61,073 nucleotides of DNA from Candidatus Omnitrophota bacterium (GTDB lineage: Bacteria > Omnitrophota > Gorgyraeia > Zapsychrales > Fredricksoniimonadaceae): the NCBI GenBank assembly GCA_002753745.1, contig PEAR01000001.1, forward strand, positions 1 through 61,073, written 5' to 3'. The notes beneath the pieces were generated by a model. That model worked only from the letters and a program-made list of their open reading frames with translations. It was not told the origin of the DNA and made no database searches. A program made the position numbers and the translations under genes. Below, in pieces: positions 3,078 to 61,073 of the stretch (position 1 is its first letter; each line of letters starts with the position of its first letter).

Positions 3078-6000
3078 TTAAACCGCTGACAGTTCCGACG
3101 CTATTTTCAATTCAGATAAAACCGGCATGTTAAGCGGCGTCATAGGCATAATACTTCTGATTACCGGCTCAAGACCGCGAATATCGATCATCGCCGGATC
3201 CTGAAACTGAACCGGCAACGGAACGCCAGCACCATCGACCTTAATGTTGATCTTCAAATTCGAGCTATCCAGATCAATACCGCCAAGGGGCGTTTGTGCC
3301 GAGTCCGTGTTTGTCGGCGGCAACAAAAGATAGGGAAATAAATGCGGAAGAATGACTTCCCCGGCTCGACGAATCGCGATTGAATTGTAATTGCGATGAT
3401 TCCCGATTCCCGTGACATCACCTTGCGGCACAACCAGCACACCGGAAACGCTCTCATCACCGTCTTTGATATCCAGAATCGTTATATCCGCTCCCTCGTC
3501 CAACGGGTGCTCACCGCGTCTGATTCCTTCCGTGTTAACCCACGCGACCTTTGATTTGTAAGCATTCGCCTTGATCGACTGAATAACACGCCTTGCCTCC
3601 AGACCGTCTTCATCAACAAGAACATAATCAGCATCCTTGTCAAACGCCGATGAGCGCAAGAAGCCCTGGTCATCCGTGTTAACTGTCACGAACTCAACTC
3701 TTTCATTCCCAGAGAGATTAAAAAGATGCCCGTCACCCTCCTGAAACTCCTTCGTTAATCGCTCCAGATCAGATCCCTGCTTTGTCGCCACCACTATGCG
3801 GATCGGATCCCCATTCTCTTTTTTGGGCGTATCAAACACCCAATGCTTGAGGAGAATATTAACAGCGCTGGTAAAAGACGGCGTCGAGATCCCCTGATAC
3901 TCCTGACTAAACGCTCGACGGGCACCTGCTTCAGCCAACGCCAAAAGCAATTGCACCGTTGCACTGGCCGGACTTCCAAAACGTCCATAAGTCCGATACG
4001 ATCCTTGAGGTAAATACGGCCCCTTGTCCGGATTTCCAGCAACGCCATTCCAGCCAAATCCCGCCTTGAGATCATCCGGATCATCAGCGCGATAGGCATT
4101 GGACGGATTCCCGCCGCTAGCGACCAGTGACCGGTGATCGCCGCTCAACAACCCCCAAATAGCCGTGTGATGAATCAGCAATGTATGCGGATTGTATTTG
4201 GTGATTAATGTTGATTCATGGATCAGACGTGCTGCTTCCTTAATGCGTGCAGACGTAAACGGAACATATCCGCCGATATCAGCAATTCCTTTAAGAATAT
4301 CCGGCTCAACGTTGTATCCTTCTTTTTTTGCGCGCTTGATGACCGGATATTTGCGCAACGCGTAACCAGTCTTTCCGTCGACATTAGTCGTCGGCTGCAT
4401 AAAGATCGCATCGAGCTGATCGTAAGGAATCTTGTCGAACTTCCCATCGTATAGCTTCAGGATCTGAAAAATTGCCCCCAACTCCCGCAAGACATCTTTT
4501 GTGTCCTCAATACCCACGGCCCAACGGATGCCTCCACGCGTCACGCCGCCTTGCCGCAACTGTTCATCCGTCAGCCCTGACAGCGCCCCGTATCCTGGCA
4601 TCTGCATAAGATTACGAACATCCCCAAGGCTCACAGCATGTTCGATGGTCCTGAAATATCGCAGAAGCGCCATGAACGCCTTGGCCCGCTCTTCCGTCTC
4701 CAGATCAAAATAAATCATGTGCCCCGGATTATTCATCTGCCTTTGCGCAATACCATATTGCGGATGCGATTCATCCCCGGGATATCGGACGAATTTCACC
4801 TGCGGGTTCTTCTTCAGCCATTCAACATAAACCCGGGCGTTTTCCTGCTGCTTAAAGAATCTTTTCTCCAGCGTCGGTAAGCCATAACGAAGAAGTTTCT
4901 TCGCATCATCCTCATTAATCGGCTCGGTCCGAAGACCTTTCAATTCTTCAACAATCTCCTTCTTGGCAACCACAACAGCGCCAAAGACATTGCCGTCGCC
5001 GGAAAGCCCCTTGGTCACGACCTGCACAACAGCATCGATCCCATACTCCAGCGGCTGCTGCCCGAGTGATGTAGCGAATGAACCGTCAAAGATAATAAAC
5101 GCCTCCGGCGATTTTGAATTCCGAACCGTACGCACCACCCTTTCCATATCAACAACCGGCAGCGACGGATTCGCCGGTGTCTCAAAAATTACTGCAGCGG
5201 TATTTCTTGACAACTCCTCAACCAGCTGATTCTCAGGATCAGACACAATCCTGACCTTAAGGCCGTACTTTCGATACAGCTCCACATCGCCTTCCGTCCC
5301 GCCATAGGCAGGACGCACCAGAACGATTTCAGGCGTACGTCCGGGATATTTAAGCGCGAACTGTTTCAAGGCATACCGAAGCGGAAGATGAACACCAGCA
5401 ACACCGGACGCCACGCTAACGCCTGCATACTGCTCTGACAGCAAATTCTGTGTTTCCAGATCAGCAACTGCCCTCTCCACTTGCTCAACCACACTCCTGC
5501 CTTGGCGCTTATCATCAACAAGAGGTAAATCAGGCCCGGATCCGCTAACAACCGGCGATGTATTGACCGTGCGGCGCTCCGGAATAATAGAAGATGGCGA
5601 AACCCCTTCCGGCGTTGTTAAAACAATCCCCAAATCATCAGCAATCTCAACAGGAATAGCCTTTCTATCTTTCTTCTGCGGCAGCCGGATCTCATTAATA
5701 CCGACAACGGTTGCCCCAGCTGGGACATCTTTGGAGACCGTTGCGTTAGCGCCTATCTTGGCGCCATCACCAATAGTGACTGTTCCCACAATACTGGCTC
5801 CAGCACCCAGCAAAACACCATTACCAACAATCGGATGTCTTCTGCCATCTGCCGTGACTTTTCCATTCGACCCCAGCGTCACCCCATGAAGAAAATACAC
5901 ATCATCGCCGACAATCGCGGTCTCGCCGACAACAACACCAATTCCATGATCAATAACAACACCCTTACCAATTGTCGCTCCGGGATGAATATCCACACCA

Positions 6001-8312
6001 AAGGCAATCGAAACCCGGCTCTGAAATCGCAAAGCAAGTTCCTGTCGACCGTTCAACCACAGCCAATGCGCCACGCGATACGCCGCCAGCGCATGAAAAC
6101 CCTTAAAGTTTAAAAACGGCGTCGAAAGCTTGTCAGATGCCGGATCACGCTCAAGTACGGCAAGCAGATCGCGACGAATGGCATCAAGAATATCCGGGGA
6201 AGCACTCAACGCTTCTTTCACCGTTGTCCTGACATCCTCGGCGTCCATGTGTTCCGACGCCAATTTGTTTGCCAACAAATAAGAAATCGCCGACTCCAGA
6301 TCCGGTTGATCAAGAATCGTTTTCTTGAGGTACTCTGCAAGCTGCCGCTCTTTCTTCGCAATCGAATCGGCTTCCTCGTACAAACGGCTCCAGACCGGAT
6401 CAGAAGACACAGTCGTCCTGGGAGATGCTTTTAAGGATGATGTCCTTACGCCTGCTGGCGCACTCTTCTTCCGTACTTGCTGTGGCTTTTCCTTCTTCTC
6501 TGGTGTTCTCGAAGAAACAGCAACCTCCTTCTTCAGCGCATCCAACCGCTGCCACGCCTCCTGCGGATGAATAGGTGCAACCTGACGGGTATCCCGATGT
6601 TGCCGCAAATCCTTTGAGATGGTCTCATCAGAAACAACAATCAACCCCTGAATACCGTTTTGCTTTGCTCTCTCATCAGTTCTGCTAATTGCATCACTCT
6701 GTTCGACACGAGCTGCACTGAACGCAAGAAGCGTCTGGGGGCTTTTTACACCAGCAGTCCGAGAAACTTCATCAAAACGTTCTGACTTGGAAAACGGAAA
6801 AAACACAATCGCTGTCTGTTTAGATAACGCATCCTGCAAATCATCAAAATTTGTCACAATCCGTGCTTCATTCGGATTTTGTCTGGCGTACAGGACAAAC
6901 ACATTATCTGCGGGTGATTCCGGCGGAATATAAAATACAGCTTCGCCATTGCCTTGCTCAATCCCGGACCGCTCCTTGGCAAAATGGATCAAATTGGCAA
7001 CTGCCGCCAGCTTTGTTGAATAACTGACCCCGTCGAATTTTCCCTCTTCCCCCTGAAAATGGACTCGCGCCGTCAGCTGCTCAACAGCTCTCACTGTTTC
7101 ATCATTCAAATCTTTTCTGCGGGCCACGAGATCAGCATGTGTTTTCTCAATTGCCCTGACCAAGTCAGTATCAACAATCTCTCGTCCGGGCTTGGACAAG
7201 AACTCCGTTGCCGAACCCTGACTCGCATCCGATATAATCTCAGGCGCGACGCCTACCATGCCGCCGGAGAAATATTTTCTCGGCAGAGTCTCGTGCGTTA
7301 AAGGATCTTCTTCCTCCTTGATATAGTTGAACACGCCAACCTTAAACGCCTCCAGATACCTCTCGTAGATCTTATCCTTTGCCTTCGGGTCATCGACCTC
7401 AACACCAGCGACCTTGTTTTTATCCGTGTAGACTTGGTTAACAAGACTTGCCTTAAGCGCCTGTTTAAACCATGTCGCCAGGATCATGGCATTATAAATC
7501 TGACGCAGCGGAGCAAAATTCTCTCCCTCGTTCACTTCTTTCTCAATGATCGGCAGAATAATTTCCCGGACAGCATTGACCGTAAATTCCTTCTTCCCTT
7601 CAACGCCATCCGCTGAATCTGAAATCTGAACATCAGATGACAGCTCATGGCTGGCTTTCTCCGCCAGATAATCTTTCTCCAGCATGACCTTTAAATGACT
7701 CTTCACAAGAAACGCAGCGCCATCTTTCTGATAAACCTCTGCCTTGTCTGCCCGAACCCAAATCTTGTTAAATGTATCAACCGGAATATCAGTTGTGCCC
7801 AATTTATCGTAGGCTTGAGCATATACTTTCCGCCAAAAGCCTCTGCCCACATCCTCTTCGGGATACATCAATGATGCCGTAAACTGCTTGAGGACATAAT
7901 CCTGACCCAACAACTCCTGACCGGTACTTGTCTGGGCAAAGCTGTTGCCAATAATGCGATGCGCTTCATAGGGCGACAGATTGACCCACACATCCTTATT
8001 GGGGATTGTCAGCGACGCCAAAAAATGCCTGATAAGCCGACTGTATTCTTGCTTCTTTTGCGTGTCTGACAATGGACGGTCACCCTGATCAACGACAAAA
8101 TAGAAATGAAAGGGATTATGCTGATCCACCTTTAACCCGACAATCTGGGGAGGATTAAAGGCATTCGTTGGAGAAAGACGCACGCCGGGAACCGGTAGCG
8201 GCAGCACCACCTGCGCGTAACCGGATTGAACTGGTATTGCGCTCAACATGGCTGTGATAAGTCCAACAGCGATGAAACGGAAAATGGATGTCTTTTGAAT
8301 TTGATGCAACAT
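3078..8312 (-). CDS. 1744 aa signal-peptide protein: shared N-module + unknown region + serine O-acetyltransferase domain + Cys/Met-metabolism PLP domain + degenerate PLP-like region + shared GGIDL C-module
   Basis: Uninterrupted ORF with SD AGGAG 7 nt upstream. Signal peptide ends GYAQ. Domain evidence is given in the sub-features below. Confidence 0.9.
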   Translation of the reverse strand: MLHQIQKTSIFRFIAVGLITAMLSAIPVQSGYAQVVLPLPVPGVRLSPTNAFNPPQIVGLKVDQHNPFHFYFVVDQGDRPLSDTQKKQEYSRLIRHFLASLTIPNKDVWVNLSPYEAHRIIGNSFAQTSTGQELLGQDYVLKQFTASLMYPEEDVGRGFWRKVYAQAYDKLGTTDIPVDTFNKIWVRADKAEVYQKDGAAFLVKSHLKVMLEKDYLAEKASHELSSDVQISDSADGVEGKKEFTVNAVREIILPIIEKEVNEGENFAPLRQIYNAMILATWFKQALKASLVNQVYTDKNKVAGVEVDDPKAKDKIYERYLEAFKVGVFNYIKEEEDPLTHETLPRKYFSGGMVGVAPEIISDASQGSATEFLSKPGREIVDTDLVRAIEKTHADLVARRKDLNDETVRAVEQLTARVHFQGEEGKFDGVSYSTKLAAVANLIHFAKERSGIEQGNGEAVFYIPPESPADNVFVLYARQNPNEARIVTNFDDLQDALSKQTAIVFFPFSKSERFDEVSRTAGVKSPQTLLAFSAARVEQSDAISRTDERAKQNGIQGLIVVSDETISKDLRQHRDTRQVAPIHPQEAWQRLDALKKEVAVSSRTPEKKEKPQQVRKKSAPAGVRTSSLKASPRTTVSSDPVWSRLYEEADSIAKKERQLAEYLKKTILDQPDLESAISYLLANKLASEHMDAEDVRTTVKEALSASPDILDAIRRDLLAVLERDPASDKLSTPFLNFKGFHALAAYRVAHWLWLNGRQELALRFQSRVSIAFGVDIHPGATIGKGVVIDHGIGVVVGETAIVGDDVYFLHGVTLGSNGKVTADGRRHPIVGNGVLLGAGASIVGTVTIGDGAKIGANATVSKDVPAGATVVGINEIRLPQKKDRKAIPVEIADDLGIVLTTPEGVSPSSIIPERRTVNTSPVVSGSGPDLPLVDDKRQGRSVVEQVERAVADLETQNLLSEQYAGVSVASGVAGVHLPLRYALKQFALKYPGRTPEIVLVRPAYGGTEGDVELYRKYGLKVRIVSDPENQLVEELSRNTAAVIFETPANPSLPVVDMERVVRTVRNSKSPEAFIIFDGSFATSLGQQPLEYGIDAVVQVVTKGLSGDGNVFGAVVVAKKEIVEELKGLRTEPINEDDAKKLLRYGLPTLEKRFFKQQENARVYVEWLKKNPQVKFVRYPGDESHPQYGIAQRQMNNPGHMIYFDLETEERAKAFMALLRYFRTIEHAVSLGDVRNLMQMPGYGALSGLTDEQLRQGGVTRGGIRWAVGIEDTKDVLRELGAIFQILKLYDGKFDKIPYDQLDAIFMQPTTNVDGKTGYALRKYPVIKRAKKEGYNVEPDILKGIADIGGYVPFTSARIKEAARLIHESTLITKYNPHTLLIHHTAIWGLLSGDHRSLVASGGNPSNAYRADDPDDLKAGFGWNGVAGNPDKGPYLPQGSYRTYGRFGSPASATVQLLLALAEAGARRAFSQEYQGISTPSFTSAVNILLKHWVFDTPKKENGDPIRIVVATKQGSDLERLTKEFQEGDGHLFNLSGNERVEFVTVNTDDQGFLRSSAFDKDADYVLVDEDGLEARRVIQSIKANAYKSKVAWVNTEGIRRGEHPLDEGADITILDIKDGDESVSGVLVVPQGDVTGIGNHRNYNSIAIRRAGEVILPHLFPYLLLPPTNTDSAQTPLGGIDLDSSNLKINIKVDGAGVPLPVQFQDPAMIDIRGLEPVIRSIMPMTPLNMPVLSELKIASELSAV
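3081..3287 (-). other. shared C-module (GGIDL...DPAM...P.I..I.PMT)
   Basis: LGGIDLDSSNLKINIKVDGAGVPLPVQFQDPAMIDIRGLEPVIRSIMPMT aligns with the C-termini of the 1033 aa and 1415 aa proteins. Confidence 0.8.
4458..5465 (-). other. Cys/Met-metabolism PLP-dependent enzyme domain (CGS/OAH-sulfhydrylase family), aa ~950-1285
   Basis: VIFETPANPSLPVVD, IIFDGSFAT, a VTKGLSGDGNVFGAVVV candidate PLP-lysine motif, VRYPG..SHPQY..A.RQM, VSLGD..NL...P and IRWAVGIED. Confidence 0.7.
5697..6404 (-). other. serine O-acetyltransferase (CysE-like) domain, aa 637-872
   Basis: SATase N-terminal helical region (FLNFKGFHALAAYRVAHWLW..GR..LA). Left-handed beta-helix hexapeptide repeats (GVDIHPGATIGKGVVIDHGIGVVVGETAIVGDDVYFLHGVTLG...RHPIVGNGVLLGAGASIVG.VTIGDGAKIGANATV). 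Confidence 0.8.
7260..8210 (-). other. shared N-module (aa 35-351) of the giant protein
   Basis: Aligns by eye with the N-termini of the 1033 aa and 1415 aa proteins. Shared blocks: NPF.F.F..D.G, R.I..FLAS.T.P.KD.WVNLSPYE, GQ/RDLL.QDY.LKQ.TAS, FW.KVY, D.PVDTFNK.W, KEVNEG.NF..LRQ.Y, Y.EAFK.G..NYI, RKYFSGG. Confidence 0.85.
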
Positions 8313-8335: not shown

Positions 8336-8494
8336 CATTGGCTTACGTGACCCCGTTCAGCTTGCAGGAACTGTAAGTTCCTGGCGTAGCCTCAGGGGTA
8401 TTTGCCAAGAATCCTTGGCAAATAAATAAGCCCAAAACATTCCGGGATTTCTTCCCGAACATTCTGGGCTTCCAGTTATCTGGTCAGACCTGTT
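8336..8494 (-). promoter_or_regulatory. conserved leader/attenuator RNA, copy 2 (between the CBS-type gene and the giant gene)
   Basis: Minus-strand RNA ACAGGUCUGACCAGAUAACUGGAAGCCCAGAAUGUUCGGGAAGAAAUCCCGGAAUGUUUUGGGCUUAUUUAUUU. This is a CCAG/CUGG hairpin followed by a terminator-like hairpin and a U-tract. It is followed by the palindromic hairpin UUUGCCAAGGAUUCUUGGCAAA and a further nested hairpin, the same order as in copy 1. Confidence 0.55.
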
Positions 8495-8510: not shown

Positions 8511-9881
8511 CTACACATCTCTTTTCCTCTTCAGATAATTCAATAAATCAATTCTTGTGACAACACCGTAAAACTTGTCCTCATCCTGAATGATCGCTGT
8601 ATAACCTTTCTTCAAAACCGCAACAAGGCTCTTCAAATCTTCCCGCGGACTCAACACTTCCGGGTCGGTAGCCATGTAATGCGCGACTTTCTCTTCAAAC
8701 TTGTGTGTATCCAAATCTTCAAACGCCAAAAGAAGGTCGGATTCATCAATAATCCCAACAGCTTTTCCATGATCAATAACAGGAAGCTGCGAAATGTCAT
8801 ACAACTTCATTCGCGAATAAGCGGTTGCGACTGAATCTTCCGGGCGAACGGAGACAACGCTATTTGAACTGTACGTCCGGGTAATCAGATCCCTGAGATC
8901 CCCCTCTTCTTTCCGTTCCAAGAGCCCCTGATCCAGAAGCCAATGATCGTTGTAAACCTTGGACAAATATTTATTCCCACTGTCACAGACAAACGTCACA
9001 ATATTTTTGGGTGTCTTCTGTTCTTTAGCATAACGGATCGCAGCCCCGAGCAAAACGCCCGTCGATGAACCCGCCAGAATTCCTTCCTTGCGCAAGAGAT
9101 CACGCAAGATCAAAAAGGCCTCTTTATCAGAAATCGAATACGCCTTCTTTACCAAAGAAAAATCAGCCTGAGCCGGAATAAAATCTTCTCCTATGCCCTC
9201 GACCCGCCAGCTTCCGGCTGTGCCAAACTTTCCTGTCGTCACATGATCGACCAGCACGGAGCCTTCCGGGTCAGCCAAAACAAACTCGATCCCCGGATGC
9301 ACCTTCCTGAAATAATCCGTCAGCCCTCTGATCGTCCCGGCAGATCCAACACCGACAGAGATGGCATCCACCTTGTGATCCATCTGTTCCCAGATCTCAG
9401 GCCCTGTTGTCGTAACATGTGCCAGCGGATTAGCCGGGTTATTGAACTGATCTACAAAGAACGAATTCGGGATCTCCTTTGAGAGCCTGAGAGCATAGTC
9501 CTGATAATACTCCGGATGGCCCTTCTCGACGTCAGAACGCGTCATGACGATCTCGGCACCCATCGCCTTCAGGCAGGCTATTTTCTCCTGACTCATTTTG
9601 TCAGGGATGACTAGCAAAAGCCGGTAGCCTTTTCGTGCCGCGACCAGAGCCAGCCCAAGACCCGTATTCCCAGCCGTAGCTTCAATCAGCGTATAACCTT
9701 TCTTTATCTTACCCTCTCGCTCTGCCGCCTCGATCATGGACAAACCGATCCTGTCCTTGATGGCACCAGATGGGTTCAGGTTCTCAAGCTTGAGAAATAA
9801 CCGGCATACCCCGACGTCAAAACTTTTGACCTCAACAATAGGCGTGTGCCCGATCAGCTCAAGAATATCCTTGTAGATCAT
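8511..9881 (-). CDS. cystathionine beta-synthase / cysteine synthase family PLP enzyme with C-terminal CBS-domain pair
   Basis: PALP-fold motifs (NLNPSGAIKDR, EATAGNTG, GVGSAGT, SSTG). About 130 aa C-terminal tandem CBS region. Confidence 0.8.
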   Translation of the reverse strand: MIYKDILELIGHTPIVEVKSFDVGVCRLFLKLENLNPSGAIKDRIGLSMIEAAEREGKIKKGYTLIEATAGNTGLGLALVAARKGYRLLLVIPDKMSQEKIACLKAMGAEIVMTRSDVEKGHPEYYQDYALRLSKEIPNSFFVDQFNNPANPLAHVTTTGPEIWEQMDHKVDAISVGVGSAGTIRGLTDYFRKVHPGIEFVLADPEGSVLVDHVTTGKFGTAGSWRVEGIGEDFIPAQADFSLVKKAYSISDKEAFLILRDLLRKEGILAGSSTGVLLGAAIRYAKEQKTPKNIVTFVCDSGNKYLSKVYNDHWLLDQGLLERKEEGDLRDLITRTYSSNSVVSVRPEDSVATAYSRMKLYDISQLPVIDHGKAVGIIDESDLLLAFEDLDTHKFEEKVAHYMATDPEVLSPREDLKSLVAVLKKGYTAIIQDEDKFYGVVTRIDLLNYLKRKRDV

Positions 9882-13161: not shown

Positions 13162-14601
13162 TTATATTCCGTCACCAAAACGTGCGTTAATCGCTCGGGA
13201 ATCTTCACGGATATCCTCAACAACATTAGGCTGTGCTTTATGAATGAAGGCGATCCAAGCAACACCCGCGAGCCAGATCCCAAGGAAGATGTACGGCAAA
13301 ATGTTATACGGCGCCGGAGGAACAGGATAAAGATTCCCCAAAATAGCCAAGCCTAGTGTAAAAACAGCCAACCCCGATATAACCAGATGCTGAATCTTCA
13401 ATTCACCTCGACGTTTGAGATACACCGGTGCTGCAATGGAAATAATGATATACGTCACAATAAACCCAAGCGTCGCAATCGTCCCCACCCAGCCGTAAAT
13501 ATCAAAATCACCCGTACCATTGATCGAAAGGATCACCGCAGGAATCACTGCCAAAATTGAGGAAATTGTGACTGCGATATGCGGCGTTTCATTCTTATGG
13601 TGAGCATCACCGGCGGAAGAATGAAATAATCCATGACGGCTCATTAAAAACAAAACACGCGCACCGGCATTAATACTTGCCAAGACACAGGCAAAGAAAC
13701 TGATGATCGCGCCAATATCAATGAGCAGACCAAGAGATGAAAGACCGGCCTTGTCCGCCAGAACACTAAGAGGCGCGCTGCTTTTATCCAATGTTTCAGC
13801 GTTCCCATAAAACCCAATAACCTGAGCATAAGAAGAAACCACAAATAACGCACCAACGATCAAGGCGCTGCGAACAATAGCTCTCGGAATACTCTGCAAT
13901 GGATTCTTGGCCTCTGAACCAAGTGCGGCTGCACTTTCAAACCCGACGAAGCTGAAGATCGCAAGCACCAAACCGCCACGTAATCCATCCAGCCCGGCAC
14001 CTTTGAGCGTCAACTGAGCCCAATCCAATTTCCATCCATACCGATAGAGTGTCACGCCCACCAGAAGAACAATGAGAGAAACCGAAAAGAACTCCAAAGC
14101 CAGAGATACACGCGTCGAAAGCTTAATGTCCTTATACGCGATATACCACGCAATCAACACGCTGAGCGCGATCAAAATAGCTGCCGGGACTTTAAAATGA
14201 AACACGCTATCAAGGAAGACGTTGGTATAGTTAGAAACACCGGATGTCACCGCAGAGGCGCAACCGATATACGCAATAAGCAATGCCCAACCGGTCACAG
14301 AGCCCCAGAACGGCCCCAGACCCGTAATAGCATAAGAGTAGAACGAACCCGGAGATGCCGAACGTCGTGCAAACTGATTAATACTAGCCGCCACCAACAA
14401 GATGCTCACAGTGGCGAACAAATATGCCAGCCATGTTGCCCCACCGGATAACGCGAATACCAGCGGAATAACAATTGTAGGCGTTGCTGTTGGCGCGATA
14501 TTGGCGATCGATTGACCCAACGTTTCCAGTGGTGTCAATGTTTCGGACTTCAAGCCGTAGGAATGGCCCCCGCGATTTACTTCTTTTGATTTGGCGCTCA
14601 T
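13162..14601 (-). CDS. APC-family amino acid permease
   Basis: About 12 hydrophobic segments. Start set at ATG 14601 (SD AGGAAG). The ORF is open to 14640. Confidence 0.8.
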   Translation of the reverse strand: MSAKSKEVNRGGHSYGLKSETLTPLETLGQSIANIAPTATPTIVIPLVFALSGGATWLAYLFATVSILLVAASINQFARRSASPGSFYSYAITGLGPFWGSVTGWALLIAYIGCASAVTSGVSNYTNVFLDSVFHFKVPAAILIALSVLIAWYIAYKDIKLSTRVSLALEFFSVSLIVLLVGVTLYRYGWKLDWAQLTLKGAGLDGLRGGLVLAIFSFVGFESAAALGSEAKNPLQSIPRAIVRSALIVGALFVVSSYAQVIGFYGNAETLDKSSAPLSVLADKAGLSSLGLLIDIGAIISFFACVLASINAGARVLFLMSRHGLFHSSAGDAHHKNETPHIAVTISSILAVIPAVILSINGTGDFDIYGWVGTIATLGFIVTYIIISIAAPVYLKRRGELKIQHLVISGLAVFTLGLAILGNLYPVPPAPYNILPYIFLGIWLAGVAWIAFIHKAQPNVVEDIREDSRAINARFGDGI

Positions 14602-14644: not shown

Positions 14645-14790
14645 GCCCCGGAAGCCCTTTAGGCTTCCAGGAGGCCTTCGGGATGTTTTTGAAAGAATTC
14701 TTTCAAAAACAAAAAGGCCCAAAACAAGTCCGGGATTAACCGGAAATATTTTGGGCCTCCAGATGTCTGGTGAGCCTGTCTACTGATTGC
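14645..14790 (-). promoter_or_regulatory. conserved leader/attenuator RNA, copy 1 (5' UTR of the permease operon)
   Basis: GACAGGCUCACCAGACAUCUGGAGGCCCAAAAUAUUUCCGGUUAAUCCCGGACUUGUUUUGGGCCUUUUUGUUUUU, then the palindromic hairpin UUUGAAAGAAUUCUUUCAAA and the nested hairpin GGAAGCCUAAAGGGCUUCC. Lies between a consensus promoter and the CDS. Confidence 0.6.
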
Positions 14791-14830: not shown

Positions 14831-14885
14831 CACTACTATCCCAGTGGGGATAGTGGAAATATAACACATCAATAACGTTTGTCAA
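14831..14885 (-). promoter_or_regulatory. sigma70-like promoter plus inverted-repeat operator
   Basis: Minus strand: TTGACA (14880-14885), 16 nt spacer, TATATT (14858-14863), then the inverted repeat CTATCCC-N4-GGGATAG (14836-14853) 4 nt downstream of the -10. Confidence 0.6.
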
Positions 14886-18599: not shown

Positions 18600-19001
18600 C
18601 TAAACCAGATCCGCCAACGTTGTATTCTCAAGCTTCTTGGATACATAATCCCTGATCTCCTTAAATACCCGGATCAAACTCTTCTCCTTCTCTATTGGAG
18701 TATGTTCAAAGAAATATACGCTGACCGACTCTGTTGGCGCAAGAGCGCCGTCAAACAAACGCACCACCTCTGCCAGACTGATCTTGTCAGCCGACTTCCC
18801 CAGCGCATATCCCCCGTGCTGACCTTTAGAACTTTTCAGATATCGGGCTCTTTTGAGAGTAAGCAGAATTTGCTCAAGAAACTTTGGGGGAATGGCTTGC
18901 GCCTTGGCAATTGTATCAACCGAAACAAGGACGTCTGCTTCCTGACGGGCAAGATAAAGAAGAGCTAGCAATGCATATTCGCTGCGTGATGTGAGCTTCA
19001 T
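18600..19001 (-). CDS. Rrf2-family regulator lacking the Cys cluster (CymR-like)
   Basis: SRSEYALLALLYLAR...IPPKFLEQILLTLKRARYLKSSKGQHGGYAL. No Cys ligands. Confidence 0.9.
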   Translation of the reverse strand: MKLTSRSEYALLALLYLARQEADVLVSVDTIAKAQAIPPKFLEQILLTLKRARYLKSSKGQHGGYALGKSADKISLAEVVRLFDGALAPTESVSVYFFEHTPIEKEKSLIRVFKEIRDYVSKKLENTTLADLV

Positions 19002-32818: not shown

Positions 32819-32949
32819 TTTCGTACCCTTTCAGGTTTGAGCGCGAGGACTAGCCCAGTGGTCTGGTGATGCCTTGCAAAATTATCTATTAGGTTTTTGA
32901 ACTCTCTCCGCTTCCGGCAAACCGGTAAACGGCGCTGCCATCCAGTTGT

Positions 32950-33147
32950 TTAGATCCCCCCTCCTTCCTGAACCGTCCAGACGTCGTCGAAACGGCTCTT
33001 TTGAGAGACCTCGATCTGGACTATCTTTGAATTATGTACAGTTATCGTCACAGTTCCGAAACTTATCCCGTGAATTGACTCGCTAATATTTTTAATGATC
33101 CCATCGTTAACAATATTTTTATTTACCTGTTTCTGCTGAGTTCCCAT
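32950..33147 (-). CDS. YezD/DUF2292-family small protein
   Basis: FGTVTITVHNSKIVQIEVSQKSRF matches the DUF2292 core (GSV.I.V.D..V.QIE..EK.R). Confidence 0.6.
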   Translation of the reverse strand: MGTQQKQVNKNIVNDGIIKNISESIHGISFGTVTITVHNSKIVQIEVSQKSRFDDVWTVQEGGGI

Positions 33148-33196: not shown

Positions 33197-33220
33197 AACC
33201 ACTGCCTTCGGGCAGTGGTT
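33197..33220 (-). terminator. hairpin after the Rrf2 gene (possible terminator/attenuator)
   Basis: AACCACUGCC-CGAA-GGCAGUGGUU followed by UUGCGAAAAA. An alternative pairing GCCC.GCAGUG/CACUGC.GGGC is possible. Confidence 0.4.
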
Positions 33221-33325: not shown

Positions 33326-33754
33326 TTAAATGGCATAATCAACTTGCTCTAATCTCTGCTTTTGCTCTGCCGCAATGGCTTCCAGCGTAAAGGAACCCAA
33401 TGCATGCACAACTGATCCCCTGGCTCTTTCCCAAAAACTATTTTCGACCTCGACCCTTTGATGCCCAATAAATTCATCGCCATCATTCAAAAAGATTGGC
33501 CCTTCAACTGCGGCAATTATGTCCGCTAGCGTGATCCTGGACGCCTCTTTTGCTAAGGCAAGACCTCCATGTGAACCACAAGTTGCGCGGATTAAGCCTG
33601 CGGTCTTTAATTGCGATGCCAGAGCCCCAATATATTTCTCGGATATTTCCTGCCTGCGTGCCGCATCTTTCAAGAAAACAAAACTACCGTTGCCATAAAC
33701 AGCCAAATCAATCATCAATCGTGTGCTGTAGCGCCCCTTAGTCGAAAGCCTCAT
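33326..33754 (-). CDS. Rrf2-family transcriptional regulator
   Basis: LSTKGRYSTRLMIDLA...ISEKYIGALASQLKTAGLIRATCGSHGGLAL. Confidence 0.9.
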   Translation of the reverse strand: MRLSTKGRYSTRLMIDLAVYGNGSFVFLKDAARRQEISEKYIGALASQLKTAGLIRATCGSHGGLALAKEASRITLADIIAAVEGPIFLNDGDEFIGHQRVEVENSFWERARGSVVHALGSFTLEAIAAEQKQRLEQVDYAI

Positions 33755-33795: not shown

Positions 33796-33870
33796 AAAAA
33801 GAAAAAGGTCAAGAATCCTCCCGATATTCATCGAGGGCACTCTTGACCTCCAGATGTCTGGTCAGTCATT
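33796..33870 (-). promoter_or_regulatory. conserved leader/attenuator RNA, copy 3 (5' UTR of Rrf2-yezD-OMP-metY...)
   Basis: AUGACUGACCAGACAUCUGGAGGUCAAGAGUGCCCUCGAUGAAUAUCGGGAGGAUUCUUGACCUUUUUCUUUUU. Confidence 0.55.
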
Positions 33871-33904
33871 TATGTCTGATTTTATGAATCGATAGAATCC
33901 CTAT

Positions 33905-33953
33905 TAACTCTGTCGAGTTAGTAGAAATATAACATGCAGATAAATAATGTCAA
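33905..33953 (-). promoter_or_regulatory. sigma70-like promoter plus inverted-repeat operator
   Basis: Minus strand: TTGACA (33948-33953), 16 nt spacer, TATATT (33926-33931), then the inverted repeat TAACTC-N4-GAGTTA (33905-33920) 5 nt downstream. Confidence 0.6.
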
Positions 33954-34619: not shown

Positions 34620-36353
34620 ATGCGCGCAGCCATCTATGCCCGATATTCATCTGAAAATCAGAGCGAAAAGAGCATTGATGACCAGATCCGTGTATGCAAG
34701 AAATACTGCGCAGAACATGATATTACTGTCGCGGAAAACAGCATCTTCATTGATGAGGCAACATCAGGGTCCCTGGTCAAACGTCCAGGGCTAAGCGCTT
34801 TTGAGAATGCTGCTGAAAACAAAGAATTTGAAGCACTCGTTGTCGATGATCTTTCCCGTCTCTCCAGAAGCAACCACCAGATGCTCACCCTGGTCTTAAA
34901 ATTCAACTACCTCCAGGTAAAGCTCATTTCTGTATCAGACGGCATCATTACCGACGACGAAAACTCCAAACTCGGCATCCAGATGCGCGGGCTTATCAAT
35001 GAACTCTACCTTGATGATTTAAAGAAGAAAACAATGCGCGGCCTTGAGGGGCAGAAACTGCGGGGATTTAGCGTCGGAGAGAATGTTTACGGCTACGTAA
35101 CACAGCCCGTTGGCGAGCTTAAGATCAACAAAAAGGGCGTAGCCAAATACGACGGTAAAGTTCATAAGATCAATCCCGAAGAAGCAGACGTTGTAAAAAG
35201 GATCTGCCTGGACTTTACCTCTGGAAAAAGCATCAACAAGATCGTCGAGCAGCTGAATACTGAAAAGATCCCGACAAAGAAGCATATGGCCGGCGGCTGG
35301 AGCATTTCAACGATCAGCCGTATCCTCAAGAGCGCTAAATACGTCGGTATATGGAAATGGAAAACAAGTAAAAGCGTTCGAGACCCCATGTCAGGAAAAA
35401 GAAAATCTGTGTCCCGACCTGAAAGCGAGCATCTATCCTTTCTTCGGGAAGACCTGATCATCATCGACAAAGAACTCTGGAACAAGGCACAGAAGCGCTG
35501 GGCAGATATCAAGGGCACCTGGCCTGTCAGCAAGAAAAAGAAGGGCTTCTATAAGCAAAAGAGTTACGCCCATACCAGCCCCACCTACCTCCTGTCAGGT
35601 CTTATGAAATGCCAGTCTTGCGGTGGAGCGGTCATTCTTATCAGCGGCAAAGGATCAGGATATTACGGATGCTACAACGCCCGGCGGAAGTCATGCCACA
35701 ACACCCTGCTTGTCCCCCGCAAGAGGATCGAGCAGATTATCATCCAAGAGCTCCAGCAAAAACTCCTGACAACGGAGAATCTTGAATACATCTTCAAGAA
35801 CATTGAGAAGCTTGCCGCAGCAGGGCTTAATGAAGTTCCTGAGCTGACCCAAAAGAAGAAGGCTCAAATGGAAAAGCTTAAGATAGAAATTCAGAATTAC
35901 ATGAACTTCATCAGGACGGGAAATATATCGAAGACAGTATCAGAAGCATTATCTGAAGCGGAAAAGAAGAATGAAGAACTGAAACACGATATCGAAGGTT
36001 TGGAATTTCAGAAGAATAATACTTTTAAGACCCCACCCAAGGAGTGGATCGATCACAGACTGGGCAGCCTGCGGGACACGCTCAATAAAGACACGGTCAA
36101 CTCTGCCTTAGCCCTGAAGGAACTGCTCGGGACGGTGACGCTCGAACCTATACTAACAAAGGAAAGTGACTATTACAGGCTGTTTGAGGGGACGGACCGG
36201 AACTTTAAGCCTTACTACGTGGCCCATACAAAAATTCAAACCCTTGCCCTCCTCGAGGAGAAAGACAAGGGTTCGAATTGGTGCCAATGGTGGAGGTGCC
36301 GGGAATCGAACCCGGGTCCTTCAGTGTCAAAGATTAAGCATCTACATGCGTAG
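34620..36353 (+). CDS. large serine recombinase
   Basis: Resolvase catalytic N-terminus AAIYARYSSENQSEKSIDDQ, recombinase domain, Cys4 zinc ribbon (CQSCGG...CYNARRKSC), coiled-coil C-terminus. Confidence 0.9.
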   Translation: MRAAIYARYSSENQSEKSIDDQIRVCKKYCAEHDITVAENSIFIDEATSGSLVKRPGLSAFENAAENKEFEALVVDDLSRLSRSNHQMLTLVLKFNYLQVKLISVSDGIITDDENSKLGIQMRGLINELYLDDLKKKTMRGLEGQKLRGFSVGENVYGYVTQPVGELKINKKGVAKYDGKVHKINPEEADVVKRICLDFTSGKSINKIVEQLNTEKIPTKKHMAGGWSISTISRILKSAKYVGIWKWKTSKSVRDPMSGKRKSVSRPESEHLSFLREDLIIIDKELWNKAQKRWADIKGTWPVSKKKKGFYKQKSYAHTSPTYLLSGLMKCQSCGGAVILISGKGSGYYGCYNARRKSCHNTLLVPRKRIEQIIIQELQQKLLTTENLEYIFKNIEKLAAAGLNEVPELTQKKKAQMEKLKIEIQNYMNFIRTGNISKTVSEALSEAEKKNEELKHDIEGLEFQKNNTFKTPPKEWIDHRLGSLRDTLNKDTVNSALALKELLGTVTLEPILTKESDYYRLFEGTDRNFKPYYVAHTKIQTLALLEEKDKGSNWCQWWRCRESNPGPSVSKIKHLHA

Positions 36354-36699
36354 ACCGTCTTTATTGTCGACTGGCGTGTTTCAACGGACAAACCCGCGCC
36401 AGACCAGCACTCTAAAATCTCGTCTTAAGAACAAGTGCGATCCTTAAGACCAGCCTGTTTGGTTCCAATGATAAAGCGACAGACTCCCTTTACCACAGGG
36501 CTTAGCCTAATTAATTAGGCTAAGACGAGGTCGTCGGCTCCGACGGGCGCAACGCTGTTCGCGCAGGCCAGATCGAAGTCGGCAGTCGTTAACGTAGTTT
36601 CGTTAGCGTTTATTGTTTGATGGAACTTTAACGAGGCCAACCATCATCCTCGGCATGCCACCTAACCCCGGCTCACTCAAGTCGAGGCCAATCACCCCC
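36288..36699 (-). ncRNA. ssrA: tmRNA (ssrA)
   Basis: 5' end GGGGGUGAUUGGCCUCGAC. 3' end GGACCCGGGUUCGAUUCCCGGCACCUCCACCA (T-arm, acceptor, encoded CCA). The internal tag frame ends ...DDLVLA-UAA inside the palindrome UAGCCUAAUUAAUUAGGCUA. smpB is adjacent. Confidence 0.9.
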
Positions 36700-38628: not shown

Positions 38629-38713
38629 GCGGAAGTGGTGAAATTGGCATACACGTAGGTCTCAGAAGCCTATGGCGCAAGCTGTGAGGGTTCAAGTCCC
38701 TCCTTCCGCACCA
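38629..38713 (+). tRNA. tRNA-Leu (anticodon CAG), CCA encoded
   Basis: Cloverleaf folded by hand. Acceptor GCGGAAG/CUUCCGC, anticodon arm UAGGU-CUCAGAA-GCCUA, long variable arm, T-arm GAGGG-UUCAAGU-CCCUC. Confidence 0.9.
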
Positions 38714-60433: not shown

Positions 60434-61073
60434 TTAGAATCCGACACCAAGCCGGATCCCGGCTTCGGTCGTCACATTGCTTGGCTCATAACCATACAAA
60501 CATTCCGAACTGGAACAAACAACAGAACCATTGACAGTGACCGGTTTAATATCGGAATTCTCGATATTCCAATACCTCACAAAAGGCTCGGCAAACACGC
60601 TCAGCCGGGTATTAATATCCTTGGAAACTTTCACCGACCCCCGCACCCCAAAGCCTTCCCTCTGGGTGTTTACCAGGGGATCCACGTTTGAATAAACATC
60701 CTCAAGATGACTGGTTTGTTCCCCGCTGAGGAGCTTGTCGTATTCAAGGTTCATCGACAAACCCCAGCCGTCACCAACGTGCGTGCGCAAATCACCGCCG
60801 ACAGGAAGATAAATATACCTGGATTCGCGATTATACCCGCCGGGCGTATATTTTTCAAAACCATCATTCAAATATCTATAGCCAAGCCCCAAATAAGGAA
60901 TCGCTGCCGAGCTGTCATTGATCTTGAAATTCTTGGCCATCAAGCCTCTTAGTTCAAACACCCCATCATGGATCCCGCTGAACGTGCCGCTGCCGGTATA
61001 ATCCACATTGCCGCCAGCCAAGCGCCCCTGAACACGAAATTCATCAACAAACAAAAACTGACTGCTGATCCAC
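60434..61073 (-). CDS. outer-membrane beta-barrel protein, 5' end beyond the window
   Basis: The frame is open to the window edge. Alternating beta-strand pattern. C-terminus ...GIRLGVGF with a terminal Phe. Confidence 0.6.
   Translation of the reverse strand, partial: WISSQFLFVDEFRVQGRLAGGNVDYTGSGTFSGIHDGVFELRGLMAKNFKINDSSAAIPYLGLGYRYLNDGFEKYTPGGYNRESRYIYLPVGGDLRTHVGDGWGLSMNLEYDKLLSGEQTSHLEDVYSNVDPLVNTQREGFGVRGSVKVSKDINTRLSVFAEPFVRYWNIENSDIKPVTVNGSVVCSSSECLYGYEPSNVTTEAGIRLGVGF

Follow-up and report, generated by a model that had tools for sequence, protein, structure and literature searches.

The minus strand of this locus raises the question of whether a short RNA motif that recurs ahead of cysteine and methionine genes is a regulatory switch, and which factor might operate it. 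A first-pass annotation of the 61,073-nt stretch of DNA analysed here (the window) had described three minus-strand copies of a small CCAG/CUGG hairpin fused to an intrinsic terminator. A pattern search of the window matched ACCAGAYAWCTGGARG exactly at 8469-8484(-), 14756-14771(-) and 33847-33862(-), against a chance expectation of 0.13, and none of 100 shuffles equalled this number of matches. As described earlier, ACCAGAYAWCTGGARG runs directly into a long hairpin and then a U-tract in all three copies. Folding energies of the three lie between -34 and -37 kcal/mol (z-scores from -3.9 to -5.1). Two mismatches break the stem of a fourth match, at 60700-60715(-), which is probably due to chance; as a motif overlapping a Shine-Dalgarno (SD) sequence it was not convincing. 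The three copies consist of the following parts, with scores from our covariance model R1:

14754..14776, minus strand: copy 1, small (putative antiterminator) hairpin; P1 GGCU/GGCC, internal loop CA/A, P2 CCAG/CUGG, loop ACAU; 38.9 bits
14705..14757, minus strand: copy 1, intrinsic terminator; GGCCCAAAAUAUUUCCGG...CCGGACUUGUUUUGGGCC and a U-tract
8466..8490, minus strand: copy 2, small hairpin; P1 GGUCU/AGCCC with one U-C mismatch, internal loop GA/A, P2 CCAG/CUGG, loop AUAA; 33.9 bits
8419..8470, minus strand: copy 2, terminator; AAGCCCAGAAUGUUCGGG...CCCGGAAUGUUUUGGGCUU, then an interrupted U-tract, AUUUAUUUG
33845..33867, minus strand: copy 3, small (putative antiterminator) hairpin; P1 GACU/GGUC, internal loop GA/A, P2 CCAG/CUGG, loop ACAU; 43.1 bits
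33796..33848, minus strand: copy 3, terminator; GGUCAAGAGUGCCCUCGAU...AUCGGGAGGAUUCUUGACC and a U-tract

The outer helix P1 that had been proposed around the CCAG/CUGG stem is present in each copy. Its 3' strand supplies the first 4 nt of the copy 1 terminator, whose energy is -27.2 kcal/mol versus -10.0 kcal/mol for the small hairpin; the corresponding values for copy 3 are -24.2 and -10.6 kcal/mol. The span 14645-14790, originally assigned to copy 1, does contain the element, but about 60 nt downstream of the terminator lie outside its conserved part.

Copies 1 and 3 follow the two promoters that had been predicted for them, and Pfam agreed with the downstream genes as first named. The surrounding features are:

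14858..14885, minus strand: copy 1 operon promoter of the form TTGACA-N16-TATATT, extended by a TG and agreeing with the consensus at 11 of 12 positions
14835..14854, minus strand: palindrome or 5' hairpin right after the copy 1 -10 box; ACTATCCC-CACT-GGGATAGT
13162..14601, minus strand: amino-acid permease (Pfam), first gene under copy 1
3078..8312, minus strand: 1744-aa protein with SATase_N, Hexapep and Cys_Met_Meta_PP domains (Pfam), under copy 2
33926..33953, minus strand: copy 3 operon promoter, likewise TTGACA-N16-TATATT and extended by a TG
33903..33922, minus strand: counterpart of the palindrome at 14835..14854, after the copy 3 -10 box; ACTAACTC-GACA-GAGTTAAT
33326..33754, minus strand: Rrf2-family regulator, nearest to CymR (Pfam, NCBIfam), first gene after copy 3
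32950..33147, minus strand: yezD, an ORF of 65 aa (DUF2292, OscA-related; NF033785 with E = 3e-10; homologues carry PF10055), whose product is a candidate trans-acting partner of the hairpin
32851..32873, minus strand: degenerate hairpin without a terminator, GGC-AUCA-CCAG-ACCA-CUGG-GCU, between yezD and a DUF3034 outer-membrane gene

After the permease, the copy 1 operon continues with a class III aminotransferase, a 191-aa protein, a Cys/Met PLP enzyme and a PALP+CBS protein (Pfam), down to position 8511. Copy 2 is intercistronic: 20 nt separate its start from the PALP+CBS stop codon, and about 105 nt separate its end from the start of the gene for the 1744-aa protein, whose orthologues P0002 to P0005 have the same motif upstream (loci L001, L002 and L004). 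A 30-nt pattern common to both palindromes is present only at the two promoters, and the palindrome at 33903..33922 was also found in the Omnitrophota relatives L004 and L096. The palindrome at 14835..14854 lies outside the conserved motif and is possibly an operator for an Rrf2/CymR-like regulator, or a 5' stem. The degenerate hairpin sits where the motif usually follows yezD. Its fold is no better than those of shuffles (z = 0.13), its counterpart in L004 (9079-9095) scored 14.6 bits, and its membership of the motif family is uncertain.

The element is widespread rather than local to the window, and Rfam does not catalogue it. A genome scan, a YezD-anchored metagenome scan and a covariance-model search together added more than 130 copies, spread over at least 14 phyla. 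The carriers include Geobacter, Methylophilus, Bacillaceae, Actinomycetota, Nitrospirota, Treponema and uncultured Omnitrophota, and several are cultured, among Bacillota, Desulfuromonadota and methylotrophs; Geotalea, Geomonas (e.g. Geomonas silvestris), Methylophilus, Thermoactinomyces vulgaris and Peribacillus asahii are examples. Of 120 pattern matches from the genome scan, 61 had an unconstrained TGA immediately 5' (1.9 expected). The element always lies on the same strand as the downstream gene. Across phyla these genes belong to sulfur, cysteine and methionine metabolism: on the assimilation side cysE, sulfite reductase, ATP sulfurylase (sat), PAPS reductase (cysH) and metK; on the transport side sulfonate and sulfate transporters, NMT1-type binding proteins, ABC transporters and porins including Porin_O_P; and also rhodanese, SrpI encapsulin, NifH/NifB-like and corrinoid proteins. 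It is from this gene context that the proposed label "sulfur-responsive" may be drawn.

The consensus reads G-C-U-G-A / C-C-R-G / A-rich loop / C-Y-G-G / A-G-G-Y-C. Its architecture takes up about 24 nt: P1 has 3-4 bp and P2 has 4 bp (CCRG/CYGG), a 2x1 internal loop in which GA faces A lies between them, and P2 is closed by an A-rich loop with 4-5 nucleotides. Since CCAG..A.CTGGARGYC was fixed in the seed pattern, the conservation of these positions in the first 82 sequences is partly a product of the search. In these 82 sequences the G-C to A-U exchange first noticed in P1 recurred (column 8-28: GC 58, AU 17, GU 2, other 5), as did exchanges among U-G, C-G and U-A (column 10-26: UG 55, CG 13, UA 12). 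We then considered 66 covariance-model matches, about two thirds of which had been found without the seed pattern. Over both helices, 96% of cells were paired, six of the eight pairs showed double changes, and 35 cells were compensatory; none of 500 shuffles reached any of the five covariation measures. One P2 pair was AU in 45, GC in 13 and GU in 5 of these matches, and other P2 variants were CUAG/CUAG, CUGG/CCAG and CCGG/CCGG. A clear Cytobacillus copy scored just 8.6 bits with model R1, which was built from the pattern-biased seed and under-detects variants.

The proposal that the two folds are mutually exclusive was borne out, as the P1 3' strand is common to both. This strand, often together with the last nucleotides of P2, forms the base of a strong intrinsic terminator with a G+C-rich stem directly followed by a U-tract. 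The terminator stem begins within 2 nt of CUGGA in 62 of the 82 copies, and most of the others appear to start inside GAGG. At the median, the terminator has -23 kcal/mol versus -8.6 kcal/mol for the small hairpin. A P1 of 3-4 bp would be a weak antiterminator, which counts against the proposed switch. At some loci the P1 3' strand instead closes the base of a hairpin in which the ribosome-binding site or the start codon is hidden. Such SD-overlapping copies first seemed opposite in output to the terminator copies; this was resolved by folding L179 and L191, where the 3' half of the motif forms the 5' arm of a hairpin masking the SD or AUG (L180 is a weaker case, and L198 is not convincing). 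Since the sequestor in L179 and L191 uses the 3' half of the motif, a clamped hairpin would mean ON on both platforms.

We read the element as a probable ON switch because the small hairpin would lose to the terminator unless it is stabilised. In the unclamped RNA the terminator would prevail, and the downstream sulfur-acquisition, cysteine or methionine genes would stay off. A factor that clamps the small hairpin, presumably under sulfur limitation, would prevent the terminator base from forming beside the U-tract, RNA polymerase would read through, and the genes would be turned on.

No known RNA family accounts for the element. At gathering score, Rfam 15 placed nothing on the motif in the window or in 38 related loci; with E-values up to 10, copies 1 and 3 gave only spurious low-scoring matches to miRNA and unrelated families. 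None of the three copies could be assigned to a known family, in keeping with the earlier failure to match the motif by eye to a SAM, cobalamin or T-box consensus. The search itself works, because true SAM-I matches appeared elsewhere in the same loci. The covariance models of SAM-I/IV, SAM-II/V, SAM-III, SAM-VI, SAM/SAH and SAH riboswitches did not match the motif. The regulon of SAM-I (RF00162) overlaps with that of the element (metK, the cysH/sat sulfate-assimilation genes and methionine transporters), but the element lacks the SAM-I four-way junction. In L077, L165, L172 and L204, one operon carries SAM-I, yezD, the motif and sulfite reductase or cysH in this order. Because they stand in series, the two are distinct and probably read different signals. 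A T-box leader, which has a specifier loop and a UGGN bulge that pairs with the NCCA of a tRNA, was rejected as well: there was no Rfam T-box match, and the UGG of the element lies within P2. Pairing of UGGA with the UCCA of tRNA-Cys is ruled out since P2 covaries to CCGG and CUAG, the UGG changing to CGG or UAG together with its partner. The sul1 motif is known only from Alphaproteobacteria and is in Rfam, whereas no Rfam family matches the copies of our element at E-values up to 10. Found upstream of sulfate transporters and serine acetyltransferase, sul1 is a separate orphan cis-regulatory candidate (Weinberg 2017; PMC5737381). The Breaker-lab and Weinberg motif surveys that we examined do not describe the element.

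Among protein-operated systems, an ANTAR target is a tandem pair of hairpins whose hexaloops have A as the first and G as the fourth nucleotide, and its second hairpin overlaps a terminator. The element has just one hairpin, with 4-5 nt in its A-rich loop, and no ANTAR domain was found in the neighbouring genes, so that this candidate was dropped. The nearer likeness is to RAT hairpins, which are bound by BglG, SacY, LicT or GlcT, the protein being needed for readthrough. Like these, the element is a short hairpin with an internal loop, shares sequence with the 5' arm of a terminator and has the weaker fold of the two. In RAT systems the regulator is often encoded immediately before its target, as in glcT-RAT-ptsG and licT-RAT-bglPH, and bglG sits between two terminators. 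However, RAT is about 29 nt long with two asymmetric loops, and the element does not resemble it in sequence or secondary structure. No CAT, PRD or CAT-PRD domain was found in any neighbourhood examined; moreover, RAT regulons comprise sugar/PTS genes instead of sulfur metabolism, and the candidate protein here is a DUF2292 domain of about 60 aa. The hut operon of Bacillus subtilis offers a similar order, a small regulator as first gene followed by a terminator, here yezD, hairpin/terminator and sulfur genes. HutP is encoded by the first gene of its operon and overcomes the terminator that follows; it is a 148-aa hexamer that recognises spaced UAG triplets and needs histidine. The element, by contrast, is a single hairpin without UAG repeats, and YezD has no similarity to HutP. 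We favour YezD as the candidate clamp; yezD lies 5' of the hairpin as hutP, glcT and licT precede their target terminators.

How strongly is yezD tied to the RNA? The gene was present in 30 of 78 motif loci. Conversely, in a yezD-anchored sample the model matched 34 loci of the 77 that were usable, and visible variants were present in another 11 or more, giving 34 to 45 of 77 unbiased yezD loci. Nearly all these matches lay about 0-110 nt after the yezD stop codon, a few up to about 250 nt, and none of 80 sampled yezD loci had the motif upstream of the gene. The YezD/DUF2292 family comprises at least 2,571 clusters at 50% identity, including proteins with two domains in tandem. OscA is a sulfur-starvation and chromate-response protein co-transcribed with sbp (PMC2996968). 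We consider it possible, a little short of an even chance, that YezD/OscA, probably as a dimer and encoded just 5' of the hairpin in most yezD loci, is the factor that stabilises it. Because the element is tightly coupled to yezD/oscA, a protein effector is at least as likely as a metabolite. We did not find a recognisable RNA-binding fold in YezD, and the protein is not markedly basic. The structural model of the monomer was poor (pLDDT 64), while that of a tandem protein was good (pLDDT 83, pTM 0.71). Foldseek searches of the PDB with both models gave nothing significant (best E = 0.027, TM 0.26), and a PDB sequence search returned no relative of known structure. Within the 8-kb neighbourhoods considered, yezD is absent for many copies, e.g. 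all the Methylophilus cysE leaders. Its first position in operons could have a reason apart from RNA binding. A ThiS/MoaD-like sulfur carrier has been suggested by the conserved C-terminal G-x-G-I tail of YezD, but the predicted helix-strand-strand repeat looks unlike a beta-grasp, and the tail is missing from many members. In the literature collection searched, no paper links DUF2292 or YezD to an RNA element.

A very small ON riboswitch is the next explanation to be weighed, and we regard it as rather unlikely. A metabolite or ion of sulfur limitation (e.g. O-acetylserine or N-acetylserine), or another sulfur-pathway compound, would bind the internal loop and P2 and stabilise P1, and yezD would merely be a conserved first gene of the regulon. 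The architecture is compatible with a generic riboswitch: in adenine riboswitches such as pbuE/ydhL the closing helix P1 competes likewise with the 5' arm of the terminator. That natural aptamers can be tiny is shown by the guanidine-II hairpins, by preQ1-I and by the HMP-PP aptamer within a terminator, and ON riboswitches and mini-aptamers of this kind (guanidine-II, preQ1-I, HMP-PP/thiS) share with the element terminator and SD platforms, tandem units, wide distribution and an invariant core. The element has a very broad phylogenetic spread with near-invariant nucleotides and joins a single core to both transcriptional and translational platforms. Complete units occur in tandem, each with its own terminator (L016, L043, L100, L111 and L116). 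Many promoter-proximal copies, e.g. in Methylophilus and Geobacter, have just a non-conserved leader of about 10-25 nt and no yezD nearby, and the series with SAM-I resembles tandem riboswitches for different ligands. A small aptamer embedded in a terminator has been described (PMC6478431). Nevertheless, no validated metabolite aptamer is known to have so small and simple a core, and a hairpin of 8 bp, with 3 nt in its internal loop and a loop that varies, provides little for a pocket selective for an amino-acid-like ligand or an anion. The gene set names no ligand, as metK, cysE and the sulfate-assimilation genes are not all expected to share one inducer. A riboswitch would also leave unexplained the strong, fixed-orientation tie to one small protein gene, with the motif following yezD in at least 34 of 77 loci and never preceding it in that sample.

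Improbable, in our judgement, is that the hairpin is clamped or opened by something else: another protein of the sulfur regulon, a trans-acting RNA, or a ribosome, through GGAGG or through termination of yezD translation nearby. The SD-like GGAGG does lie within the conserved 3' half, and in L149, L174, L183, L200 and L177 the yezD stop codon is a few nucleotides from the motif or is its UGA, so that translation could affect folding. However, most yezD stops lie about 19-36 nt before P1, beyond the footprint of a terminating ribosome, and we found no ORF upstream of the promoter-proximal copies. In the terminator-type copies a start codon never occurs at a consistent distance from GGAGG, on which ground a leader peptide and a true ribosome-binding site were both rejected. 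The changes of P2 to CCGG/CCGG and CUAG/CUAG rule out T-box-like pairing with a tRNA 3' end here too, and no gene family other than yezD consistently adjoins the motif in the neighbourhoods examined.

That there is no switch at all, the hairpin being a constitutive companion of ordinary terminators (a stability or processing signal, or a partial terminator setting polarity) or a DNA operator, we hold to be very improbable: CCAGNNNNCTGG is a DNA inverted repeat and a terminator after yezD could just end a yezD transcript, but wobble pairs that only RNA tolerates are abundant (one P1 pair is U-G in 50 of 66 sequences, and P2 contains G-U), which with the strict strand orientation rejects an operator, the P1 5' strand covaries with terminator-paired nucleotides, which only the use of both folds would explain, the operon behind a promoter-proximal leader would be silenced by a constitutive terminator of about -23 kcal/mol, and the same core is joined to SD-masking sequestor hairpins.

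A switch of this kind would matter well beyond this bacterium. In most phyla the control of sulfur assimilation is poorly understood apart from SAM, T-box and CysB/CymR-type factors, and the element would provide a compact, easily recognised RNA switch ahead of genes for the assimilation of sulfate, sulfonate and sulfite, of cysE and metK, and of nitrogenase-like genes for sulfur salvage. It would explain the second terminator that follows the S-box and yezD in some operons. A very small ON switch may also serve as a part for synthetic biology, and if a metabolite were the effector after all, no smaller metabolite riboswitch would be known, nor any earlier one for a signal of sulfur limitation. 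For YezD/OscA, a family known only from sulfur starvation and the chromate response, the association gives a first concrete hypothesis of function. With nearly even prospects, judged from sequence, DUF2292 may represent a new family of sulfur-status-dependent RNA-binding antiterminators, with the 24-nt hairpin as its operator and one sulfur-starvation regulon across at least 14 phyla.

Three exact matches to the pattern ACCAGAYAWCTGGARG were found in the window, each on the minus strand, against 0.13 expected by chance, which agrees with the three motif copies reported by the first-pass annotation:

14756-14771, minus strand, match in copy 1 (element at 14706-14780), ahead of genes for a permease, an aminotransferase, a Cys/Met PLP enzyme and PALP+CBS
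8469-8484, minus strand, match in copy 2 (8420-8494), ahead of the gene for a 1744-aa SATase_N-Hexapep-Cys_Met_Meta_PP protein
33847-33862, minus strand, match in copy 3 (33796-33870), ahead of genes for Rrf2, YezD, DUF3034, a Cys/Met PLP enzyme and PALP

A fourth match, at 60700-60715, carried two mismatches that disrupt the stem and was treated as chance. The long hairpin and U-tract claimed for each copy were seen directly 3' of all three, and the 96-nt copy regions had fold energies of -34 to -37 kcal/mol (z-scores -3.9 to -5.1). The promoters described ahead of copies 1 and 3 were near-consensus TTGACA-N16-TATATT with a TG extension; copy 2 came after the PALP+CBS stop codon and ahead of the 1744-aa SATase/PLP gene. 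The gene content also matched the sulfur and amino-acid functions named earlier.

By eye the motif had fitted none of the SAM-I to SAM-VI, SAM/SAH, cobalamin or T-box consensuses, and the Rfam scan then proposed bore this out. In the window, Rfam 15 at the gathering score returned just two RNAs, with no family on the element:

36288-36699, minus strand, tmRNA (173.9 bits)
38629-38710, plus strand, tRNA (57.1 bits)

At E-values as high as 10, nothing except spurious low-scoring miRNA and unrelated families was returned for the copy 1 and copy 3 regions. Across 38 related loci, true SAM-I riboswitches and tRNAs were detected and no family fell on the element. The element thus has no entry in Rfam 15, and we found no description of it in the literature searched, most subscription-journal articles lying outside that search. 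A sulfur context is common to the element here and the sul1 motif, which is treated as a motif of its own in PMC5737381. Sul1 is included in Rfam, and no Rfam family matches these copies. The likeness to RAT/BglG-type and HutP-type antitermination and to ON riboswitches lies in the way of working; the element was assigned to none of these systems, whose diagnostic sequences, structures and proteins, as far as they were tested, were absent from it.

A gapless alignment of 82 copies (A2) was used to examine the small hairpin. Seed conservation in A2 is partly inherited from the search pattern; independent evidence comes from the upstream GCUGA, the 5' strand of the outer helix (P1) and model-found copies. 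GCUGA was conserved across the 82 copies, outside what the pattern asked. The earlier claim that the outer helix covaries held for three P1 column pairs: 8-28 (GC in 58 copies, AU in 17, GU in 2, other in 5), 9-27 (CG in 77, UG in 4) and 10-26 (UG in 55, CG in 13, UA in 12). Because pairing fades further out, P1 comprises 3-4 bp. The proposed covariance-model search also yielded further covarying copies. Within the same loci, the model built from A2 (R1) recovered copies overlooked by the pattern, several with compensatory changes in the inner helix P2 (CCGG/CCGG in five, CUAG/CUAG in one) and others with 5-nt loops. In a second alignment of 66 R1 hits, about two thirds of them found without the pattern, 96% of cells were paired, six of eight pairs had changed on both sides, and 35 cells were compensatory. 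None of 500 shuffles reached any of the five measures, and slid controls were all far lower. The relaxed consensus reads G-C-U-G-A / C-C-R-G / A-(C/A)-A-A / C-Y-G-G / A-G-G-Y-C, and more divergent copies such as GA-CUGG-AAAA-CCAG-AGG were found too. R1 E-values are rough, and the model under-detects variants (a clear Cytobacillus copy scored 8.6 bits).

The terminator stem started no more than 2 nt after CUGGA in 62 of the 82 copies, and in most others it appeared to start inside GAGG (GAGGUC...GACCUC-UUUU). P1, and sometimes the last P2 pair, is therefore incompatible with the terminator, in line with the mutually exclusive folds suggested previously. Median energies were -23 kcal/mol for the terminator versus -8.6 kcal/mol for the small hairpin. 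By these predictions the terminator should form unaided, so that antitermination is possible only if some factor stabilises the small hairpin. A subset of copies had no terminator. At loci L179 (-25.8 kcal/mol, z = -4.4) and L191, a hairpin masks the downstream SD or AUG, and its 5' arm is formed by the motif's 3' half; L180 has a similar, weaker one. A clamped small hairpin would therefore turn genes ON in either arrangement. Tandem units, each with its own terminator, occurred at five loci (L016, L043, L100, L111 and L116). Methylophilus copies had a conserved -10 box, TATAGT, about 13 nt ahead of GCUGA, and Geobacter promoters lay about 20-25 nt ahead of it; the functional RNA therefore consists of hairpin and platform alone.

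One genome per GTDB species was scanned with CCAGNNANCTGGARGYC-N20-50-GRCYTNTTT, and at least 118 loci matched, against about 35 expected by chance on our own estimate. TGA, which the pattern did not require, stood immediately 5' of the motif in 61 of the 120 matches listed versus 1.9 expected; those listed without TGA are chance matches, most of them within coding sequence. Carriers included many Desulfuromonadota (Geobacter, Geotalea, Geomonas), Methylophilaceae, Methylococcales, Bacillota (Thermoactinomyces, Thermoflavimicrobium, Paenibacillus, Peribacillus, Bacillus, Alicyclobacillus, Thermincola, clostridia), Actinomycetota, Ktedonobacterales, Nitrospirota, Nitrospinota, Treponema, Armatimonadota, Rokubacteria, Methylomirabilales, Auribacterota and Omnitrophota. 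Among the copies listed, the first downstream gene encoded serine acetyltransferase in 7 loci (all the Methylophilaceae), corrinoid proteins in 5 and SAM synthetase in 2. Other first genes encoded ABC transporter ATPases, NMT1-type binding proteins, permeases, NifX/NifB-like, NifH-like and nitrogenase-like proteins, sulfite reductases, rhodanese, ATP sulfurylase and SrpI-type encapsulin. The window itself is from a Candidatus Omnitrophica/Omnitrophota MAG. On contigs with orthologues of the 1744-aa protein, the same hairpin and terminator preceded permease, CBS, giant-protein, DUF3034 and NMT1-type ABC transporter genes. The downstream set is a sulfur-acquisition, cysteine and methionine regulon; such genes are needed under sulfur limitation. 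In Geobacteraceae and Nitrospirota, the hairpin stood ahead of NifH-like, NifB-like, NifX-like and corrinoid/URO-D methyltransferase genes, loci that may serve sulfur salvage (cf. nitrogenase-like methylthio-alkane reductases) and not nitrogen fixation:

L032, 4250-4285, hairpin before Nif-like/corrinoid genes
L109, 5557-5592, the same
L094, 6176-6212, the same
L055 and L162, the same

The end of one small ORF recurred in the upstream flanks of the motif. This ORF is DUF2292/YezD, and among NCBIfam models it comes closest to OscA, the sulfur starvation response protein. The window's own yezD occupies 32950-33147 on the minus strand. An HMM search placed yezD in 30 of 78 motif loci, and in about 19 of these 30 the motif started 6-125 nt past the yezD stop. 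As an unbiased test, 80 loci from a YezD-anchored metagenome scan were searched with R1, 77 of them with enough downstream sequence. A same-strand match was found in 34 of the 77, nearly all about 0-110 nt from the stop, with a few as far away as about 250 nt, and at least 11 further loci in the sample had obvious variants. Downstream genes there included six Porin_O_P anion porins, three NirA/Sir sulfite reductases, a YeiH-type putative sulfate exporter, an NMT1 protein, MetK and OmpW. The motif was upstream of yezD in none of the 80 loci; a gene merely regulated by the element should lie 3' of it. The genes hutP, glcT and licT sit directly upstream of their own target terminators, a regulator-terminator order like that of yezD, fixed immediately upstream of the hairpin. 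At L149, L174 and L183, the yezD stop codon doubles as the motif's conserved UGA, with P2 in a flipped CUGG/CCAG form; a terminating ribosome would cover the hairpin, which may couple translation to RNA folding in this subgroup.

At 50% identity the YezD family forms at least 2,571 clusters, with many tandem two-domain forms, which imply a dimeric unit. AlphaFold predicted a tandem form as (helix-strand-strand)x2 (pLDDT 83, pTM 0.71). This model had no significant neighbour among PDB structures, so its fold speaks neither for nor against RNA binding. Many YezD C-termini end in G-x-G-I (EGGGI in Omnitrophota, GSGI in Geobacter, GLYGDGI in tandem forms; YezD alignments A3, A5 and A8), a tail missing from many family members, and the related L001 operon encodes ThiF-like and ThiI-like enzymes. 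Some connection with sulfur-carrier chemistry is conceivable. PMC2996968, citing Viti et al. 2009, describes OscA of Pseudomonas corrugata as a small protein whose inactivation causes chromate sensitivity, with a chromate-induced oscA-sbp transcription unit tied to sulfate starvation.

In Methylomirabilales-like contigs and Cytobacillus spongiae, a SAM-I riboswitch was followed by yezD, the hairpin with its terminator, and then sulfite reductase or cysH-sat-cysC genes. The C. spongiae SAM-I (86.6 bits) precedes an annotated 'YezD family protein', the variant GCUGA-CUAG-ACAAA-CUAG-AGGCG with terminator, and genes for PAPS reductase, a transporter, sat, cysC and sulfite reductase. The serial arrangement occurred in at least two lineages (L077/L165/L172 and L204):

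L077, 2761-2896, minus strand, SAM-I before yezD
L165, 2121-2257, plus strand, SAM-I before yezD
L172, 2132-2260, plus strand, SAM-I before yezD
L204, 3763-3868, plus strand, SAM-I before yezD

Two different RNA switches are therefore in series, which argues that the signal read by the element is not SAM.

On comparative grounds, the best-supported though still tentative reading makes the hairpin a protein-dependent antiterminator and YezD its candidate clamp. A riboswitch that binds a small ligand directly would suit the wide spread, invariant core, two kinds of platform, tandem units and copies with no yezD nearby; we consider it unlikely: no validated metabolite aptamer is known with so simple a core, and the orientation of yezD is left unexplained. 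Involvement of another factor or of the ribosome seems improbable. A constitutive element or DNA operator is very unlikely, and the wobble pairs, the strand specificity and the covariation with nucleotides also paired in the terminator speak against it. Under YezD-dependent antitermination, loci ordered promoter or S-box, yezD, hairpin and genes would form a feed-forward cascade, in which yezD would be transcribed first and its product would then let readthrough proceed.

Several further structures were observed around the window copies. In Omnitrophota copies, a second hairpin abuts the terminator U-tract and is bordered on its 3' side by an A-tract complementary to that U-tract (e.g. UUUUUGAAAGAAUUCUUUCAAAAA); these structures were absent in copies from other phyla:

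about 14680-14715, minus strand, window, second hairpin after U-tract
about 8395-8430, minus strand, window, the same
about 18960-19000, L003, the same
L096, the same

Copies 1 and 2 have one more long hairpin ahead of the start codon, likewise absent in copies from other phyla. A 10-bp G+C-rich hairpin at 33197-33220, AACCACUGCC-CGAA-GGCAGUGGUU, separates the Rrf2 gene from yezD; it was classed by the scan as terminator-like on the plus strand, and on the minus strand just a weak U-run follows it. In the giant protein (3078-8312, minus strand), the N-terminal 349 aa, with a signal-like start, and a C-terminal tail of about 60 aa form one module, common to more than 2,700 large Omnitrophota proteins with very different cores (phosphoglucomutase, M48 protease/UbiB, isocitrate lyase, response regulators and others). 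Finally, a 20-nt palindrome, ACTAnCnC-nnCn-GnGnTAnT, lies 3 nt past the -10 box at 14835-14854 and 33903-33922 (both minus strand), at both regulated promoters and no other site in the window, and recurs in L004 and L096, which are Omnitrophota relatives. It may serve as an operator for the Rrf2/CymR-like regulator whose gene follows copy 3, or form a 5' RNA stem; in both cases it would add a second control layer to the same operons.
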